From Lobosporangium transversale (Eukaryota), in the NCBI RefSeq assembly GCF_002105155.1, contig NW_019028979.1, forward strand, positions 930,001 to 994,000: a DNA stretch of 64,000 nt. The letters are read 5' to 3'. A program made the position numbers and the translations under genes. Of the stretch, positions 12,290-23,819 are shown piece by piece. Numbering within the stretch: position 1 is the first letter of the stretch; the number at the start of each line of letters is the position of its first letter. The notes beneath the pieces were generated by a model. That model was not told the DNA's origin and did no database searches. It worked only from the letters and a program-made list of their open reading frames with translations.

Positions 12290-12625
12290 GCACAAACTAA
12301 CTAGGCAATTGATGTTTGACCAATTCCTCATAATCCATGCCGCATCCTCAAGTAGTATTTATTGAGACTTATCCCCTCTGAAACAAAACCTACGCTGCCT
12401 CTTCAGGTCGTCAAGTCTATCCAGGCCTGCTCTTAGCCTGAAGTCCAGCGCCCGTTCTCCCATTGGTCGTTGAGTTCCAGAGTGTTAGGTTAAGATATTG
12501 TAGTCGAGATCATTTCCCTAGCTGTCTAAGCACAATGCGTGATTTGGTCAAGCCTTTTGCAGTCTCTTGATCAACGCTCGCCTCAAGGTAGTCAGCCCAG
12601 TGTTCACTCATTCTGTTCCATTGGT
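12290..12625 (-). pseudogene. C-terminal F-box/LRR fragment
   Basis: The reverse strand encodes ERALDFRLRAGLDRLDDLK and LEDAAWIMRNWSNINCL, homologous to paralog C-termini. There is no 5' part, and the fragment abuts the start of the 12659 duplication. Confidence 0.7.
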
Positions 12626-12937
12626 AATCCCTGTCACACTCTTAGATACATCATATATGTGTGCAACAGTAACGCGTTACTCTATGTCTAATATGTAAAA
12701 GCATTATAGACTTGGACAAGTACAAGGTACAGGTAAACTTAACGAAGATGATCCCTACACTTAAGACTCTCGACTGAGATATTGTGCAGAAATATCTTCA
12801 CGAGACGCGAAAGCAGATCAAGCTATTCTTTTAGTTGAGAACCTGTATGCATTCTACAGTGTATATGACTATTGCCTCTACTACATGTCCAAGGTCCCTT
12901 CCTTCCATACCAGGCTATGAATAGGCAATGCACTCCT

Positions 12938-14500
12938 TTACTTCCTCAGTCTTTTTGCCCAATATCCAATATATATATTGTGCGGCGCAAGTATATTACA
13001 CATCATATTGCCATTCCAGTACTTGATTCTTGGCCAATTCTCCACGATCCATGTTGCTTCCTCAAGATCTATTTCTTGGAAACAATTATTGCTGAACGAT
13101 AGTAGACGCAGCCACTTCAGGTTGGCTAGCTCATCTAGACCAGTTCTTAGTCTCAAATCCAGCGTCCGCTTTCTTGAGTCCACCTTTATTAGTTTAAGAG
13201 ATTGTAGCTGGGTCAATTTCCCAAGTTGCTTGAAGACACTACGTGTCTTCTCCATGCCCTCAGTAGTCTCTTGATCAGTGTCTATCTCAAGATCAATCTC
13301 CAACATAGTCAGTCCAGTGCTCACCCATTCTGCTCCATTGGCAATCTCTGTCATTGTGATTTTAGGTCCCACAAACTTCTTCAGGCGTGGACAATTGGAT
13401 AAAATAGCTTGAACAATCCCATCCACATCCACAATGTTGCGCTCATTGATCATCAAGCTTTCAACAGTTTCACAAAGCTTCTGCGGCCTTGTCTTCCATA
13501 CCATTTGTCCATTATCAAAAGCCTCTTGCTTGTCAGATAGCAATTCCTGCAGAGACAGCTGACCGACTTCACGAAAGATGTCTAGCCGTTTTAATCCAGG
13601 CATCCGTCTGAGCAATCTCGCCGTGCTCTCGTCTTTTAACTGCGCGTTTGTCAAAATCAGCTCTGACAAGTTATCCTGAGTCCAGGGATGCTGAAGGAAT
13701 ACTTCCTTGTAGAAAACATCGCCGTATTGCTCATATTGGAATGAAAATGATTCGTAGGAATCAAAAAATTCCAGTACACGCAATCCTGAACATCTTCTGA
13801 CCAACACCCCAAGGCAATATGCTTTTGTGTACGAGTCCTGGCTGTATACTCGGATGTTCTTAAGACTTAGTGTGTGAATATTCGAGAGATTATAATCACT
13901 GTCCTCATTACTAAGGAAGCTGGCAGGTAGCCGGTTTAAGGATAGTCCATTCAAGTACAAGTACTTAATTTTCTTGCACACTTGGAGGAATACATCGATT
14001 TCGTCGTCTATTTCTACGGAAGATACTTCTAGATGCTCGAGGTTGGTACATCCCAGCAATGTCTCCCAGAGTTCATGCGATGTTTCAACAACGTCCAAGC
14101 AAAGTCTGGTGATGGTAGAGCTGTGGTTCTTGAGGAGGGGTTTCAAATCGTCATTCGGCTCGTGACACCATCCTTCGAATGCGATGAACTGGAGGCGATC
14201 ACATCCCTGCAATGACCAATACTCGTATGGAATGTCAAAACATTTCATTAGGTCTGCAAAATTATCACTTCGAAATGTTATCGCTTCAATGTATTTCTTG
14301 TGTTTCTGTAGTGTTTCGCCAGTAGGATATACGGAATCAGGTACGACGACACGGATGTCTTTCCATATACGCCTGATAAGGGTGCTATGAAAAGTCTTGG
14401 AGACGCGGATGCAGTTCAGGAGGTCATTTCGCTCGAGAAAGTCTCCAACAGGCGAGATGATTTCTGGGAGCTCCAAAGGATTCACTTTTAGATTGTTCAT
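12938..14500 (-). CDS. F-box/LRR protein copy A, intronless, 520 aa
   Basis: Intact ORF with F-box-like N-terminus (LELPEIISPVGDFLERNDLLNCIRVSKTFHSTLIRRIW) and LRR-like repeats. Confidence 0.88.
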   Translation of the reverse strand: MNNLKVNPLELPEIISPVGDFLERNDLLNCIRVSKTFHSTLIRRIWKDIRVVVPDSVYPTGETLQKHKKYIEAITFRSDNFADLMKCFDIPYEYWSLQGCDRLQFIAFEGWCHEPNDDLKPLLKNHSSTITRLCLDVVETSHELWETLLGCTNLEHLEVSSVEIDDEIDVFLQVCKKIKYLYLNGLSLNRLPASFLSNEDSDYNLSNIHTLSLKNIRVYSQDSYTKAYCLGVLVRRCSGLRVLEFFDSYESFSFQYEQYGDVFYKEVFLQHPWTQDNLSELILTNAQLKDESTARLLRRMPGLKRLDIFREVGQLSLQELLSDKQEAFDNGQMVWKTRPQKLCETVESLMINERNIVDVDGIVQAILSNCPRLKKFVGPKITMTEIANGAEWVSTGLTMLEIDLEIDTDQETTEGMEKTRSVFKQLGKLTQLQSLKLIKVDSRKRTLDLRLRTGLDELANLKWLRLLSFSNNCFQEIDLEEATWIVENWPRIKYWNGNMMCNILAPHNIYIGYWAKRLRK

Positions 14501-15164
14501 GTTGTAAAGGTTGTAGAGAGAAGATGCTGATGAACCTGTTCACAGCTGGCATTCTTTGTTTTTGTTGTACAGGTCACACACGCTTTGGTCACAGCCAAGG
14601 TTTTGACATTGTTCCTTGTCCACTCTTTGGTGAATGTCCTTTCTTCGTCCAAAAGTCCCATCAATACACTGTCAAACTGCGCGAGAGTGTAGGAATCTCG
14701 AAGTGTACAACCTGCCTCACGTCTAACTTGCTGATTGGACGACATGAGTGTAAAGACTAAAGGCCCTCTTACATGCTGAGCAAGGACAGCTGCTTGGAAT
14801 AGGTCATGTGAGACGGCGAAAGACAAACGAAAGAGAAGCATTCTGTTGACCTGATAAATGGATTGCATGTTCCAACCCGGAATCAATACGCTAAAAAGAC
14901 TTAGCATTAGAAATTAATGGCAATAACGGGTCATACTCATTAATGCGATAAAATCCATGGTCTGAGGTTTTTAAACGGACCTATGTCACCTTATAGATCT
15001 TATAGATAGATACATAGTTATCTGGTACAGGTGCCTCTACCAGAAAATGTTAATACCCCATGGGTGTGGTATGTGGACCCATATCTTATTCTCACCGACC
15101 TTCGTATTCACATATCTGTCTACAAATATTTCTGACCTGATAAAACTTGTCTACAAAATATTTT

Positions 15165-15265
15165 ACACCTGATAAGTACACTATGAAAAGTCTTTGGAAC
15201 ATGGATGCAGGTTACAAGAAGTTACAAGAAGCCGTCAACGAGTGGGATGGTTTCTAATATATCAC
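15165..15265 (-). pseudogene. Short F-box N-terminal remnant
   Basis: cctgataagtacactatgaaaagtctttggaacatggatgcagg resembles cctgataagggtgctatgaaaagtcttggagacgcggatgcag in copy A (the CIRVSKTFHSTLIR region). Confidence 0.5.
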
Positions 15266-15732
15266 CTTTTATTTCTATCACAAGTCTCATCCGATTGACT
15301 ACCTTATAAGATGCATGTATTACTCCCATGCTGTATAGAGTGTTTGGTATGCCTTAATAAGACCGATGACATTTCTTTATTCATGTCTTCCACAGCTGGA
15401 TGAAGCTCCAGTAGGGTTTGTAACGAAATAAAAGGGTTGACGTGATATTTGTGTGCAACAGTAACGCGTTACTCTATGTCTAATATGTAAAAGCATTATA
15501 GACTTGGACAAGTACAAGGTACAGGTAAACTTAATGACGATGATCCCTACACTCTTCCGACTGAGATATAGTGCAGAAATATCTTCACGAGACGCGAAAG
15601 CAGATCAAGCTATTCTTTTAGTTGAGAACCTGTATGCATTCTACAGTGTATATGACTATTGCCTCTACTACATGTCCAAGGTCCCTTCCTTCCATACCAG
15701 GCTATGAATAGGCAATGCACTCCTTTACTTCC

Positions 15733-17301
15733 TCAGTCTTTTTGCCCAATATCTATATTGTGTGGCGCAAGTAAATCACACATCAACTTGCCATTCCAGT
15801 ACTTGATTCTTGGCCAATTCTCCACGATCCATGTCGCTTCTTCAAGATCTATTTCTTGGTGATCATCATTGCTGAACGATAGTACACGCAGCCACTTCAG
15901 GTTGGCTAGCTCATCTAGACCAGTTCTTAGTCTCAAATCCAGCGCCCGCGTTTCGCTATCATTTGAGTCCCGCTTTGTTAACTTAAGAGACCGTAGTTGA
16001 GTCAATTTCCCAAGTTGCTTAAAGACACTACGTGTCTTCTCCATGCCCTCAGTAGTCTCTTGATCAATGTCTACCTCCAGATAAACAGTCAATTCGGTCA
16101 GTCCAGTGCACACCCATTCTGCTCCATTGGCAATCTCCGTCATGGTGATTTTAGGTCCCACAAACTTCTTCAGGAGTGGACAAATGGATAAAATAGCTTG
16201 AGCAACTCCCTCGTTTCCGTCGTCCAGTTCGACCACCAATCTTTCAACAGTTTCACAAAGCTTCTGCGGCCTTGTCTTCCATACCATTTGTCCATTATCA
16301 AAAGCCTCTTGCTTGTCAGATAGCAATTCCTGCAGAGACAGCTGACCGACTTCACGAAAGATGTCTAGCCGTTTTAATCCAGGCATCCGTCTGAGCAATC
16401 TCGCCGTGCTCTCGTCTTTTAACTGCGCGTTTGTCAAAATCAGCTCTGACAAGTTATCCTGAGTCCAGGGATGCTGAAGGAATACTTCCTTGTAGAAAAC
16501 ATCGCCGTATTGCTCATATTGGAATGAAAATGATTCGTAGGAATCAAAAAATTCCAGTACACGCAATCCTGAACATCTTCTGACCAACACCCCAAGGCAA
16601 TATGCTTTTGTGTACGAGTCCTGGCTGTATACTCGGATGTTCTTAAGACTTAGTGTGTGAATATTTGAGAGATTATAATCACTGTCCTCATTACTAAGGA
16701 AGCTGGCAGGTAGCCGGTTTAAGGATAGTCCATTCAAGTACAAGTACTTAATTTTCTTGCACACTTGGAGGAATACATCGATTTCGTCGTCTATATCTTC
16801 GTCAGATACTTCTAGACGCTCGAGGTTGGTACATCCCAGCAATGTTTCCCAGAGTTCACGCGATGTTTGAGTATTTTTAAAGCAAAGTCTGGTGATGGTA
16901 GAGTTGTGGTTCTTGAGGAGGAGGTTCAAATGGTCATTCGGCTCGTAACAGTTCCATCCTTCGAATGCGATGAACTGGAGGCGATCACATCCCTGCAATG
17001 ACCAATACTCGTATGGAATGTCAAAACATTTCATTATTAATCTAAGAAACGCGTCTGGTTCATCATCACTTCGAAATGTTATCGCTTCAATGTATTTCTT
17101 GTGTTTCTGTAGTGTTTCGCCAGTAGGACATCTGGAATAGGATTCGGCGACAAGGACGTCTTTCCATATATGCCCGATAAGGGTACTATGAAAAGTCTTG
17201 GAGACGCGGATGCAGTTCAGGAGGTCATTTCGCTCGAGAAAGTCTCCAACAGGCGAGATGATTTCTGGGAGCTCCAAAGGATTCACTTTTAGATTGTTCA
17301 T
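15733..17301 (-). CDS. F-box/LRR protein copy B, intronless
   Basis: Intact ORF. The homologous start MNNLKV is at 17301; the track's upstream ATG at 17355 has no in-frame equivalent in copy A. Confidence 0.88.
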   Translation of the reverse strand: MNNLKVNPLELPEIISPVGDFLERNDLLNCIRVSKTFHSTLIGHIWKDVLVAESYSRCPTGETLQKHKKYIEAITFRSDDEPDAFLRLIMKCFDIPYEYWSLQGCDRLQFIAFEGWNCYEPNDHLNLLLKNHNSTITRLCFKNTQTSRELWETLLGCTNLERLEVSDEDIDDEIDVFLQVCKKIKYLYLNGLSLNRLPASFLSNEDSDYNLSNIHTLSLKNIRVYSQDSYTKAYCLGVLVRRCSGLRVLEFFDSYESFSFQYEQYGDVFYKEVFLQHPWTQDNLSELILTNAQLKDESTARLLRRMPGLKRLDIFREVGQLSLQELLSDKQEAFDNGQMVWKTRPQKLCETVERLVVELDDGNEGVAQAILSICPLLKKFVGPKITMTEIANGAEWVCTGLTELTVYLEVDIDQETTEGMEKTRSVFKQLGKLTQLRSLKLTKRDSNDSETRALDLRLRTGLDELANLKWLRVLSFSNDDHQEIDLEEATWIVENWPRIKYWNGKLMCDLLAPHNIDIGQKD

Positions 17302-17638
17302 GTTGTAAAGGTTGTAGAGAGAAGATGCTGGTGAACCTGTTCCCACAGCTGGCATTCATTTTTTTTTTTTTTTGTTTTGTTGCACAGGTTGCACACTCTT
17401 TGTCCAAAGACATTGCATTTGTTTGTAATGGCTTTTTAGATTTGGTAAGTACGAAGTACTGTACAAGTGGAGTAAATGAAATACCCTCGGGTGAGATTTT
17501 ATGTACAAAGAGATCCTTGAATTATTATTATTTGAGAAACCATCTTTTTATAATCTTCATCGTATGCACCCATATCCAAAGCTCATGCCCTTTACACCAG
17601 GATCGTGGATTGATAATGTATTTCTCTAATCTTTTGGT

Positions 17639-19183
17639 CTAATTGTTAAGGACTATGTTGTGAGACTGAAGTAAGCTATGTACCAAAGTGTACACATCTT
17701 CCTCATTAGTTGGATGGCCATTCAAACATCTGATGCTTGGCCAGTTGTCCACTATCCATGTCGCTTCTTCAAGACCCATTCGCTGGTGATTATCACCCCT
17801 GAACACCAAGCTATCCAAATTCTTCAAATTGGCTAGCTCATTCAGACCTGCTCTCAGTCTCAAGTCCAGAGTTCGTTTGTCATTTTCTCTGCGCCAGGAT
17901 GTTAAGTCAAGGGTTCGAAGCCGAGTCAATTTTCCCAGTTGTCTGAACGCAATGCGCTGTTTCGCCATGCCCTCAGCAGTCTCTTGATCCACGTTTGCCT
18001 CAAGATAGATAGTCAAGTTAGTCAGTCTAGTGCTAACCCATTCTACGCCACTGACAATCTCCGTCACCATGATTTTAGGTCCCGTCAATTGCTTCAAGTG
18101 TGGACAATTTGATAAAATCGCTTGAACAATACCGCTCACTTCAAAATAGTGTTTATCGAATACCAATGTCTCAATTGTTTCGCAGAGCCTCCGAAGCCTT
18201 GTCTTCCGTATCATTTGTCCATTATGCAAAATGTCTTGTTTATCGGTTCGCAATCCATATAGCGAGAACTTGCCGAGCTTACAATGTGGGATATTTAGCT
18301 GTCTTAATTCAGTCATCTGTCTGAGAAGTACTGCCATGTCCTCGTCTTTTATATTCATACAAGGCAAAGACAGATCAGATAGATTTACCAGAGCTCGAGC
18401 GTGCTGGAGGAATGCTTCCCTGCAGAAATCATCGTGCTTTGCATGGTAAGGTTCCCCTTTCTCGTTGGAATCGGCAAATTCCAGCGCATGCAATCCTGGA
18501 CATCTCTTCACCAACATACCGAGACAATACGAGGGCGTGTGCGGGTTTGGAGACTGAGTTACCTTTACATCTTTAATAGCCAGTGTCCGTATATTTGGGG
18601 GAAAACATTCATTGGCCTCGTCACTTAAGAAGCTGACAGGAAAATGGTGTAGAAGTACAAAATCCAAGTCCAAGTGCCTAACTTTCTTACAAACTTCAAA
18701 GAGTAGATCGACCTCATCTTCAATATAAATGTAAAAAGCCCCGAACCGATTGAGGTTGGCACAATCCAGCAGTGTCTTCAAAAGCTCTTGTGAAGGTTGA
18801 CCATGGCTCAAGTGAAACCTGGTGATTGTAGCGCTGTGAGCCTTGATCAAGTTCAAAAGTGAATCTGTTCAGATCGTTCCTCTCCTCGGTATTCGATGGG
18901 CTGGAGGCGACCACATCCTTGCAATGATGTATACTCCCCCGGAATGCTGCCTGCTCGAAATCTAATCTCCTCAATCCATTTCTTGTTATTTTGCAAGGCA
19001 CCGCCAGTAGGATATCTGCATAGAGAAGGTTCAATAGTGATTTTTCTCCATGAATCTGATAAAAGTACTATGAAATGCCTTGGAGACAAGGATACAGTTT
19101 AGAAGATCTTTTCGGGCGAGAAAGTCGCCAATGAGCGAGGTGATTTCCGGAATATCCGTAAGATTCAATTTAATGTTGTTCAT
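17639..19183 (-). pseudogene. Full-length F-box/LRR pseudogene (two frameshifts)
   Basis: ATG at 19183 reads MNNIKLNLTDIPEITSLIGDFLARKDLLNCILVSKAFHSTFIRF and then hits TGA. Homology continues in another frame from ~19050 (WRKITIEP..YPTG..SLQGC) and returns to the first frame at ~18856 for a 405-codon stretch. Confidence 0.82.
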
Positions 19184-19718: not shown

Positions 19719-20770
19719 TCAAATAGTCATGTCACCCATATCAGCGCATGGCGTTGAATGATGTGCGGATAGTAGGCTGTTTATCAAGCGATCCAAATAA
19801 CTGATTCTTGGCCAATTGTCCACAACCCATGTCGGATCCTCAAATCCTATTAGCTGGCGGTCATTACCACGAAACCCTTTAGATTGGTTAGTACATCCGG
19901 GCGTCCCTAAATCCAAGCTTAACGTTCGCTTTCCCTCTTATTCCTTGGACTCCAAGATGTTAGGTCAGGACTTCGTAGCTGATTCAGCTTCCCTATCCGT
20001 TTAAATGCAATACGCTACTTTCTCATACCATCTACAGTTCCTTGGTCGACATCTACCTCAAAATAGATGGCTAGGTTAGCCAGTCTAGTGCTAACCCAGT
20101 CTGTGCTATTGACAATCTCTGCCACAGTGCTTTTAGGCCCTCTTAGTGGTTCTAGTCACAACAATTCAGAAAAGTAGCTTGAAATATTTCATTCGCGCTG
20201 GCACTTTGTGTATTAATCAACAGCACTCTAATAGTCTCACAGAGTCTCCGTAGGATTGCTTGTTTGTCAGCTAGTGATTCTTGCAGAAAGAGCTTGCAGA
20301 ACTTGCAAAATAAAGCATCTCGCTGTCTTAATTCTGCTATATGTCTCAGAAGTGCTGCCATGCCCTCGTTTTTTTATGGCCATGTAAGGGAGAAGTAGGT
20401 CTAATGGCTTTGTCAGTAGCCAGGGGCGGTGAAGGTATGCTGTGCTTAAGAAATTATTGTGGATTGGTTCCTTTGGATTCTCGCAAAATTGGGATCGCTA
20501 AATTCCAGTGTACATAATCCTAGACATTCCCGGCCCAACGTACCGAAGTAATACAATGATGTATCCGGATATGGAGGGCTGATTTTCTCGGCACTGTAAA
20601 TCCTTAATGTGTATAGATCTGGGAGAATATACTCATTGGTTTCGCTATCCAAGAAATTAATGGGCAACTAGCGTATGGAAATATTCCGCAAGTCTACCCT
20701 AACTTGCTTGCTGACTCTAGGAATATATGAACTTTGACGTTTATACGTATGCTAGGTGTTTTTGGGTTGT
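19719..20770 (-). pseudogene. Heavily degraded F-box/LRR pseudogene
   Basis: Colinear fragments in several frames (ILPDLYTLRI, MAALLRHIAELRQ, RRLCETIRVL, FEDPTWVVDNWPRI) with stops, frameshifts and deletions. Confidence 0.8.
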
Positions 20771-21032
20771 GAACATTGATGGACTTCAAAAGCCCTCCGA
20801 AATACCTTCCACAGTTCGATGAACCGGAGGCCAACACGTCCCCGCAATCAACCTTACTCACCTGGGATAGCCCGCTAATAAACTTGGCTGGTTTTCCCAG
20901 CCCCATTCGGACAACGATATCTCGCCATCAATCTTTTTTTTTTTTTTTTTTTTTTTACTATACTGCATATCGCATGTTTTCTTGGAAAGATTAATGCCAT
21001 TTCCTCATTCTTGCCATCCACAGGTTCGTGGC

Positions 21033-22258: not shown

Positions 22259-23819
22259 CTATCTACAAATGGCTATATTGTGCGATTTAAGCAAGTCAGA
22301 CACCAAAGTGTCTACAATTCCATTTTCCTTCAGTTCACCAATCAAGAATTTGATGCTTGGCCAATTATTTGCAATCCATGTCGCATCCTCAAGGTATATT
22401 CGCTGGTAACCATCATCTCTAAAGCATAACCTATGCAGCTTCTTCAGGCTGGCTAGTTCATCCAGACCCGCTCTTAATCTCAAGTCCAAAGTCCGTTTTC
22501 CATTACCACCCAAGCTCCACCCTGTTAAATCAAGGGAACGTAGTTGAGTCAGTTTTCCTAGTTTCTTAAAGACAATGCGCGCCTTCTCCATGCCTTCGGC
22601 AGTCTCCTGGTCAACGTCTGCCTCAAGATTGATAGACAATTCAGTCAGCCTAATGCTAACCCATTCCACACCATTAACAATCTCTGTCACCGTGATTTTG
22701 GACCCCATCAGTTGCTTCAGGCACGGGCAATTTGATAAAATAGTTTGGACAATGCCACCCATCGCAACACTTCGTATGTCGAACACCAATGTCTCAATTG
22801 TTTCGCAGAGTTTCTGTAGCCTAATCTCTCATACCATGTGTCCATTACCCAACACCGCTCGTTTGTCAGCAAGCAATTCCTGCAGGGAAAGCTGGTCAAA
22901 CCCACAAAACGGAACATTGAGCCGCCTTAGCCGAGTCATCTGACTGAGAAGTGCCGCCATATCCCTGTCTTTTATTCTCATGTGGGGAAAAGAAAGATCT
23001 GATAGGTTTGTTAGAGCCCAAGGATGTCGAAGGAATGCTGCCCTGTAGAAATCATCGTGTTTTGGTTGCTTAGATCGCCTATATTCGATGATGTCGACAA
23101 ATTTCAGTGCGCACAATCCTAGACATTTTCTCACCAACAGGCCGAGGCAATACGAGGGTGTATAAGGATGTGGAGGGTTGAGTATTTCGACGCCCGTAAT
23201 ATATAGTGTGCGTATATTTGTGAGAAGACAATTGCTGAGCTCATCATTCAGTATACTGATAGGTAGCTGGTGTATGGCTACACCATCCATGCCCAAGTGC
23301 CTAAGTTTCTTGCAGACTTGTAGAAATAAGTCAACTTCGTCATTTATACGTGTGTGAGATATTTCTAGACGCTCGAGGTTGGTGCATCTTAGTATTGTCT
23401 CCCAGAGCCCCGGTGAAGATTGAGTGTTATCCAAGCAAAGCCTAGTGATAGTGGAGTTGTGGGTTTTGATGAGGTTCAAAAAATCTATTGGTATGGGCAA
23501 CCTCCATGTTAATCTTACATATTTGATGTCGTGGAGGCGGTCACATCCCTGCAATGATCCATACTCCTCTGGAAAGTTGATTTCAAATACAATCCTTTCA
23601 ATATGTTTCTTGTTGTTCTGCAGTGCATCGCCAACAGGATATCTGTCAAATTCGACAGGTGTTGTGACAACGATATCTTTCCATATGCACCTGATAAGGG
23701 CTCTATGAAAAGGCCTTGGAAACGCAGATACAGTTTAGAAGGTCTTTTCGATCGAGGAAGCCACCAACAAGCGAGATGATTTCTGGGAGATCCAATAGAT
23801 TCAATTTAATATTGTTCAT
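22259..23819 (-). pseudogene. Full-length F-box/LRR pseudogene (+1 frameshift and a nonsense codon)
   Basis: ATG at 23819 reads MNNIKLNLLDLPEIISLVGGFLDRKDLLNCICVSKAF. An extra T near 23708 creates TAG. An in-frame TGA at 22829-22831 sits where copies A/B have Trp (MVWK), and the same frame continues to 22259. Confidence 0.85.

Follow-up and report, generated by a model that had tools for sequence, protein, structure and literature searches.

Tandem F-box/leucine-rich repeat genes of Lobosporangium transversale as mosaic paralogues with a variable predicted concave face

Two neighbouring genes of Lobosporangium transversale, each predicted to encode an F-box protein with leucine-rich repeats (LRRs), raise the question of how two copies came to be identical over long tracts and densely different in short patches. 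The genes, A and B, lie in tandem within a 64,000-nt stretch of contig NW_019028979.1 (assembly GCF_002105155.1, forward-strand positions 930,001 to 994,000), which was analysed as a whole and is called the window; all coordinates refer to it. A sequence-only reading had proposed that a common scaffold is homogenised while the substrate-binding surface diversifies. The observation behind it is real, and its support now exceeds what one gene pair could give. Our analysis suggests, with a probability of about 0.6, that A and B belong to a group of at least five close paralogues, mosaics of one another that differ mainly on the predicted concave face, that their products probably serve as Skp1-bound adaptors of SCF (Skp1-cullin-F-box) ubiquitin ligases, and that through their changing LRR face these products would select fast-evolving proteins, probably foreign or selfish ones, for ubiquitination.

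Differences between the copies and the predicted fold

The two genes belong to a tandem duplication whose units and parts are listed in Table 1. The shared 3' flank (12653-12937, 285 bp), described earlier as near-exact, differed by six substitutions and a single indel of 5 nt, none of them beside the stop codon. The coding core, previously put at about 550 bp with one synonymous mismatch, measured 554 bp with a single difference, at 13883, which is synonymous. Every A/B peptide pair quoted in the sequence-only reading was found, and the F-box (amino acids (aa) 1-42) was the same in both proteins, with one silent change. Unbroken identity between the coding sequences extended for up to 425 nt, compared with a mean of 66 nt and a maximum of 143 nt in 5000 shuffles of the 120 mismatch columns.

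The structure model of A (predicted local distance difference test score 86.4, predicted template modelling score 0.85) comprised three N-terminal helices followed by a run of strands, which were registered as 16 LxxLxLxx repeats. Foldseek placed TIR1 first (E 3e-10), with COI1, FBXL2 and also chains of the NLRC4 complex among the top six matches. In VIA-align the FBXL2-SKP1 chain came first (Z 19.9, root-mean-square deviation 3.9, 367 residues aligned), and two Leptospira LRR proteins were tied within 1. The family profile matched PDB sequences weakly, best of all those of Skp2, TIR1, KDM2A/B and FBXL5 (E 1e-4 to 6e-3); profile positions 13-56 matched KDM2A/2B chains weakly (E 2e-4 to 5e-4). 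The F-box-like family PF12937 was detected in 38 of the 44 family members at E<=0.05 (best 1.2e-7). The C-terminal LRR solenoid that characterises FBXL adaptors is predicted, with 16 repeats and matches to FBXL2 and TIR1. No Pfam family of the NB-ARC or NACHT type was found in any of the 44 members, and the 520-aa model of A is filled by the N-terminal helices and the LRRs. Predicted fold and profile evidence support the architecture proposed from the letters, with an F-box-like N-terminus followed by LRRs. The segment 13490-13530 (minus strand; aa 324-337 of A) is modelled as a beta-hairpin between LRR10 and LRR11 and is well conserved in the close paralogues.

The strands of LRR proteins form the concave binding face. 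The same placement is given in PMC8226289. Surface positions were defined as x3, x5, x7 and x8 of LxxLxLxx plus the next six residues, taken from the model strands and not from the differences, with the alignment already seen; their concave placement is inferred from the LRR register rather than from coordinates. Outside the core, A and B differed at 48 of 104 surface positions and at 16 of 170 other LRR positions (P=6e-12), which places the differences on the predicted concave strands and following loops, as had been claimed. The strand-plus-loop segment differed in 10 of the 16 LRRs (1-5, 11 and 13-16) and was the same in LRRs 6-10 and 12. The claim of sharply bounded patches stood in its strand and loop focus but not in its sharpness, given the differences at other positions and the many silent changes in the C-terminal part (proportion of silent differences, pS, 0.17).

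Entropy was measured across paralogues, not alleles, in a set of 40 more distant members that excluded A, B and the close paralogues P0001 and P0002. Exposed strand positions reached 2.94 bits, loops 2.17 bits and polar helix positions 1.43 bits; the most variable half of the helix positions reached 1.94 bits, significantly below the exposed strand positions (P=5e-12). Among the 76 sites above 3 bits, 64 were strand or loop sites (39 and 25, respectively). A second paralogue pair, P0021/P0051, differed at 16 of 144 surface and 9 of 349 other positions (P=0.0004). In seven pairs of near-identical proteins from other genera (four from one cluster), which had few differences and an approximate register, surface enrichment was not significant (13/128 vs 24/313 in the most diverged). 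No enrichment of exposed hydrophobic residues was found on the variable face (0.22 vs 0.41 at variable helix positions; aromatics 0.14 vs 0.10).

Selection and exchange between paralogues

With class-specific silent divergence (dS), the ratio of replacement to silent rates (omega) between A and B was 3.17 at surface positions (P=0.006) and 0.81 at other positions, so that dN/dS exceeded 1 at the strand and loop positions. A shared-dS model (omega 4.7, P=4e-9) was set aside because it presumes equal silent rates in patches and scaffold. On the surface of LRR1-5, the proportion of replacement differences (pN) was 0.27 and pS 0.03, with 21 replacement and no silent-only codons among 46 (simulated P=0.006), and this signal held when the surroundings of indels were masked. 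A signal of positive selection in the substrate domain beside a conserved F-box was found for A versus B, driven by LRR1-5. Judged from these alignments, positive selection in LRR1-5 of the A/B pair appears well supported; across the family it is plausible but not proven.

Several results weigh against an adaptive SCF adaptor. The strand and loop positions of LRR11-16 gave pN/pS of 1.0-1.6, which was not significant. When each changed codon was counted once over both parts, P was 0.097, and masking round indels gave P=0.06; the division into N- and C-terminal parts was itself made post hoc, with the data already seen. Comparisons with the broken paralogues C and D (five in all, the A-C refit omitting the frameshifted part of C, and pairs with the intact paralogue E dropped as saturated) gave surface omega values of 0.68-1.48, none significantly different from 1, and 0.32-0.50 for the rest. 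The A-B scaffold value is not clearly purifying. The PF12937 score of A was 16.1 bits (E 0.0098), under the curated Pfam cut-off of 24.3. All nine protein pairs compared across two assemblies of the same species label, a set that did not include counterparts of A and B, were identical or nearly so; no variation between isolates is in evidence, and the two assemblies may be clonal.

Part of this evidence, namely the scaffold omega, the strand and loop values near 1 against C and D and the non-significant C-terminal part, would suit genomic drift, in which most F-box genes of a birth-and-death family lie idle, nothing constrains the surface and conversion simply follows from the tandem layout. 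Two of the five full-length copies in the window are broken, and relics are present, as drift would also have it; such drift is argued for lineage-specific plant F-box genes in PMC3030570. Since relaxation gives omega up to 1, it does not by itself fit the 21:0 excess in LRR1-5. Nor does drift predict concave strands more variable than the most variable helix positions, and A, B, P0001, P0002 and P0060 have all kept long open frames, with their LRR indels in frame. We consider drift rather unlikely.

The identities of A to P0001, P0002 and P0060 were 85%, 78% and 77%, respectively. These three were treated as paralogues within the same assembly and were compared as proteins only. The possibility that P0001 and P0002 are alleles of another strain was rejected: P0001, P0002 and P0060 are placed on a contig of 1,854,208 bases, the length of the one that bears the window-encoded P0054, and public runs X1-X3 show P0002-type letters, by our reading of the letter-change table, beside window-identical pieces. 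Among 198 polymorphic columns, matching runs of 56 columns for A-B (192-338), 37 for A-P0001 (36-121), 29 for B-P0060 (374-477) and 16 for P0001-P0002 were found, each with P=1e-4; of the other six of the ten pairs, three gave P values of 0.006, 0.04 and 0.03 and three were not significant. Trees by segment, with segments picked after the alignment had been seen, joined A with P0001 at aa 19-125 (support 99), A with B at aa 164-347 (99) and B with P0060 at aa 348-503 (92); the tree of aa 126-163 lacked resolution. In approximately unbiased (AU) tests of four candidate trees, each of the three segments rejected the trees favoured by the others (P<0.01). The runs and AU tests show the five genes to be mosaics at the protein level, probably through gene conversion or unequal crossing-over, and much of the A/B difference appears to consist of segments common to other paralogues.

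Within the core LRRs 6-10, 24 of 54 strand and loop positions vary among the five close paralogues. Because these repeats vary at their surface, the identical tract removed surface and scaffold differences alike. On the alignment, the core reads as a recent exchange or duplication tract over surface and scaffold together, and segment exchange appears to carry both; the formula of a homogenised scaffold under a diversifying surface therefore had to be given up. In the loop after LRR2 (14249-14263, minus strand), an insertion is present in the five close paralogues and in none of the distant ones, in four versions among the five genes that vary in length and sequence. It resembles a dedicated hypervariable loop.

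Dense multi-nucleotide patches could also come from a programmed or targeted diversifier within one isolate, such as templated cassette conversion or hypermutation at patches, for which lamprey variable lymphocyte receptor assembly offers a within-individual parallel. The patches are richer in transversions (34 transitions and 42 transversions, compared with 23 and 7 elsewhere), and relics adjoin intact genes. However, silent divergence is not raised in the N-terminal patches (pS 0.034 vs 0.021), and the A-D comparison gives equal dS for the two classes (0.57 vs 0.62), which means that the patches are no hot spots of mutation. Patch variants also change stepwise among paralogues (LDDAETSR, LYDAETSR, LDVVETSH), the common tracts cover several LRRs rather than single patches, and the proteins of the second assembly are unchanged. 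Such a diversifier is very unlikely.

The preferred account of A and B as mosaic SCF adaptors would run in five steps. Tandem duplication yields copies, many of which decay: about 15 kb of the window contains three intact genes, two broken genes, two relics and one 5' fragment. Replacement changes and in-frame loop indels gather at x3, x5, x7, x8 and the next six residues, in LRR1-5 faster than silent changes, probably under positive selection. Gene conversion or unequal crossing-over would then copy multi-LRR blocks between paralogues, giving the mosaic seen at the protein level, with new patch combinations and the identical A/B core. By analogy with established FBXL biology, Skp1 would dock on the F-box and a substrate on the LRR face. 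Going by the arms-race signature alone, the proteins bound would come from bacteria, viruses, mobile elements or fungi that are non-self.

On this last step, sequence data are blind to foreign as opposed to native targets, and FBXL proteins normally take host substrates. Adaptive diversification might instead be directed at the fungus's own proteins or at an internal conflict (meiotic drivers, allorecognition, or self/non-self recognition at mating, in which S-locus F-box proteins act) and not at outside microbes. Lineage-specific expansion and fast surface change are hard to square with stable host substrates, and no partner toxin or substrate gene family was found among the scanned open reading frames (ORFs) of the window. 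We judge native targets unlikely, and A and B are likely, by analogy, to belong to a recognition repertoire.

The array, its assembly and the wider family

Table 1. Features of the duplicated unit and the surrounding family array (window coordinates)
Feature	Position	Strand	Remarks
Duplicated unit, copy A (gene with its 3' flank and a short 5' flank)	12653-14566		92% identical to copy B
Duplicated unit, copy B	15445-17369		
Gene A, intronless F-box/LRR ORF, 520 aa	12938-14500	-	Three-helix N-terminus and 16 predicted LRR strands
Gene B, intronless F-box/LRR ORF, 522 aa	15733-17301	-	
F-box-like region of A, aa 1-42	14375-14500	-	Protein identical to B
LRR1-5 of A	14012-14374	-	Five variable patches; protein nearly identical to P0001 up to aa 125
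Near-identical A/B core, LRR6-10	13458-14011 (B 16241-16794)	-	Read as recent exchange or duplication tract
LRR11-16 of A	12992-13459	-	Five variable patches, with indels that keep the frame; counterpart in B clusters with P0060
183-bp tract, A = B	12784-12966		Across stop codon and proximal 3' flank
Paralogue E, 522 aa	9667-11235	-	Intact; ~40% identical to A
Family relic	12311-12640	-	C-terminal LRRs
Paralogue C	17639-19183	-	Frameshift near 19045
Family relic	19758-20691	-	In three frames
Paralogue D	22259-23819	-	Frameshift near 23712; in-frame stop 22829-22831
Isolated 5' (F-box) fragment	24281-24387	-	

The two genes also differ at their ends. A 7-nt indel near the stop codon (12966-12975) alters the terminal frame, so that A ends in GYWAKRLRK, and B and P0060 end in GQKD. 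Gene B would encode 540 aa if started at the in-frame upstream ATG at 17355, and the corresponding ATG is the annotated start in P0001, P0002 and P0060. Upstream of its start (14552-14500, minus strand), A has lost 2 nt relative to B. The upstream ATG, in frame in B, is thereby out of frame in A and begins an ORF of 42 codons that runs over the start of A. This arrangement may limit the translation of A; out-of-frame upstream ATGs (17359 and 17413) precede gene B as well. The public model of A (P0054, marked as encoded in the window) comprises just its last 188 aa.

An assembly collapse or a chimera of two more diverged copies could imitate an identical core. Four of seven public runs were used, all as contigs; X6 and X7 were left out, having next to no matching words. 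Contigs of run X5 agreed with B at every position of 15683-16205, 16253-16483 and 16454-17122; the third of these pieces joins the core to the B-specific N-terminal patches, and the DNA runs X1-X3 matched the unique flank and spacer pieces with 0 differences. In X3 the core piece had a depth of 32, compared with about 10 for unique pieces; run depth is a weak guide, and one run could be the window's own source. The core also holds one real A/B difference. In favour of an artefact, no contig in the four runs spans the whole stretch, and no listed piece links the patches of A to the core. Assembly collapse is unlikely, and we give it only a very small chance. None of the listed runs is recorded as RNA. 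Run X5, which may be RNA by our guess, covers B and lacks depth in 3 of 30 bins; this hints weakly at transcription and does not imply that A is silent.

The piece 14998-15095 of the A-B spacer had a depth of 135-171 in X1 and X3, compared with about 10 for unique pieces, and many loose ends lie at its borders. A dispersed repeat, about 100 bp long, thus precedes A, and no second copy was found in the window. Short degenerate family fragments lie in the intergenic regions 15164-15218 and 20817-20859. Beyond the array, the region 25000-63000 contains housekeeping genes (amino-acid permease, a lyase that we read as fumarase-like, SAPS, Ecl1, polysaccharide deacetylase, ribonucleotide reductase and START genes) and many long poly-A/T runs.

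The size of the family was taken from protein searches only. Among 48 homologues of A, 47 were labelled Lobosporangium transversale and one, a weak match, Linnemannia elongata; with the content of the array, this points to a tandem expansion specific to the lineage, in which copies are born and die. The profile, built from 44 sequences, matched 4787 clusters at E<=0.001, a count that will take in unrelated LRR proteins, and 495 at E<=1e-30. All ten clusters looked up, hand-picked from the best 150, bear names that we take to be those of Mortierellaceae, and of six Atlas rows shown, five were commonest in Mucoromycota and one in Basidiomycota. The wider family reaches across Mortierellaceae. 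A literature search returned nothing on this family under Lobosporangium or Mortierella with F-box; subscription papers and supplements lay largely outside it, and a mention in a genome paper could escape.

Relation to known recognition systems

The best fold and profile matches are FBXL receptors (FBXL2, Skp2 and FBXL17; plant TIR1, COI1 and D3/MAX2), which have the same order of N-terminal F-box-like helices and LRR solenoid. Known FBXL-type receptors are conserved, low-copy and have fixed substrates. The present family differs in having dozens of paralogues under one species label and a variable concave face.

In their evolution, A and B resemble the F-box families of Caenorhabditis and plants, with which they share tandem expansion, pseudogenes, F-box conservation, positive selection on the substrate domain and a proposed immune role. 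For C. elegans, PMC8120010, citing Thomas 2006, describes an F-box under purifying and a substrate domain under positive selection, together with the immune hypothesis. The nematode substrate domains are mostly FTH or FBA, whereas the fungal genes described here use an LRR solenoid and have exchanged blocks among paralogues.

Highly variable plant nucleotide-binding LRR receptors (hvNLRs) show high-entropy x positions of LxxLxLxx on the concave sheet and recombination and gene conversion between close paralogues, and both concave hypervariability and conversion are described in PMC8226289. The same high-entropy concave face was found here (2.94 vs 1.94 bits), across paralogues. Unlike hvNLRs, the family has no NB-ARC or signalling domain, its predicted output is ubiquitination and its face is not enriched in hydrophobic residues. 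By this analogy, the A/B family would have an hvNLR-like sensor surface, yet it is not an NLR.

Fungal NLRs with WD40 or tetratricopeptide repeats (TPRs) are also recognition repertoires shuffled within and between genes. According to PMC10197012, they shuffle near-identical internal repeats and trigger cell death, whereas here dissimilar LRRs are exchanged in register between genes. Nematodes and plants already offer examples of this evolutionary logic; the novelty lies in the fungus, the LRR scaffold and the block shuffling between paralogues.

Members of Mucoromycota host endobacteria. Tentatively, Mortierellaceae may have built an LRR innate immune repertoire from F-box proteins, with many receptors in each genome, recombined in register between paralogues, that would tag endobacterial, viral or competitor proteins for destruction; this wider claim is possible but less likely than not. 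F-box and LRR proteins are mentioned in the available part of PMC7482071 only as candidate effectors of endofungal bacteria. A 2010 survey (PMC2939053) reports that fungi lack LRR pattern-recognition receptors, and a 2023 review (PMC10197012) that fungal NLR sensors mostly carry WD40 or TPR repeats. As a large LRR family of fungi whose variable face resembles that of receptors, the present one is a candidate to fill this reported gap. Were the wider claim of an F-box-derived immune repertoire true, fungi would have in it their missing LRR-type recognition system, one that acts through the proteasome and not through cell death. Because the five natural chimeras differ by whole blocks of LRR patches on a common frame, specificity could be mapped by comparing them; they also make testable the long-standing proposal that the targets of expanded F-box families are foreign proteins.

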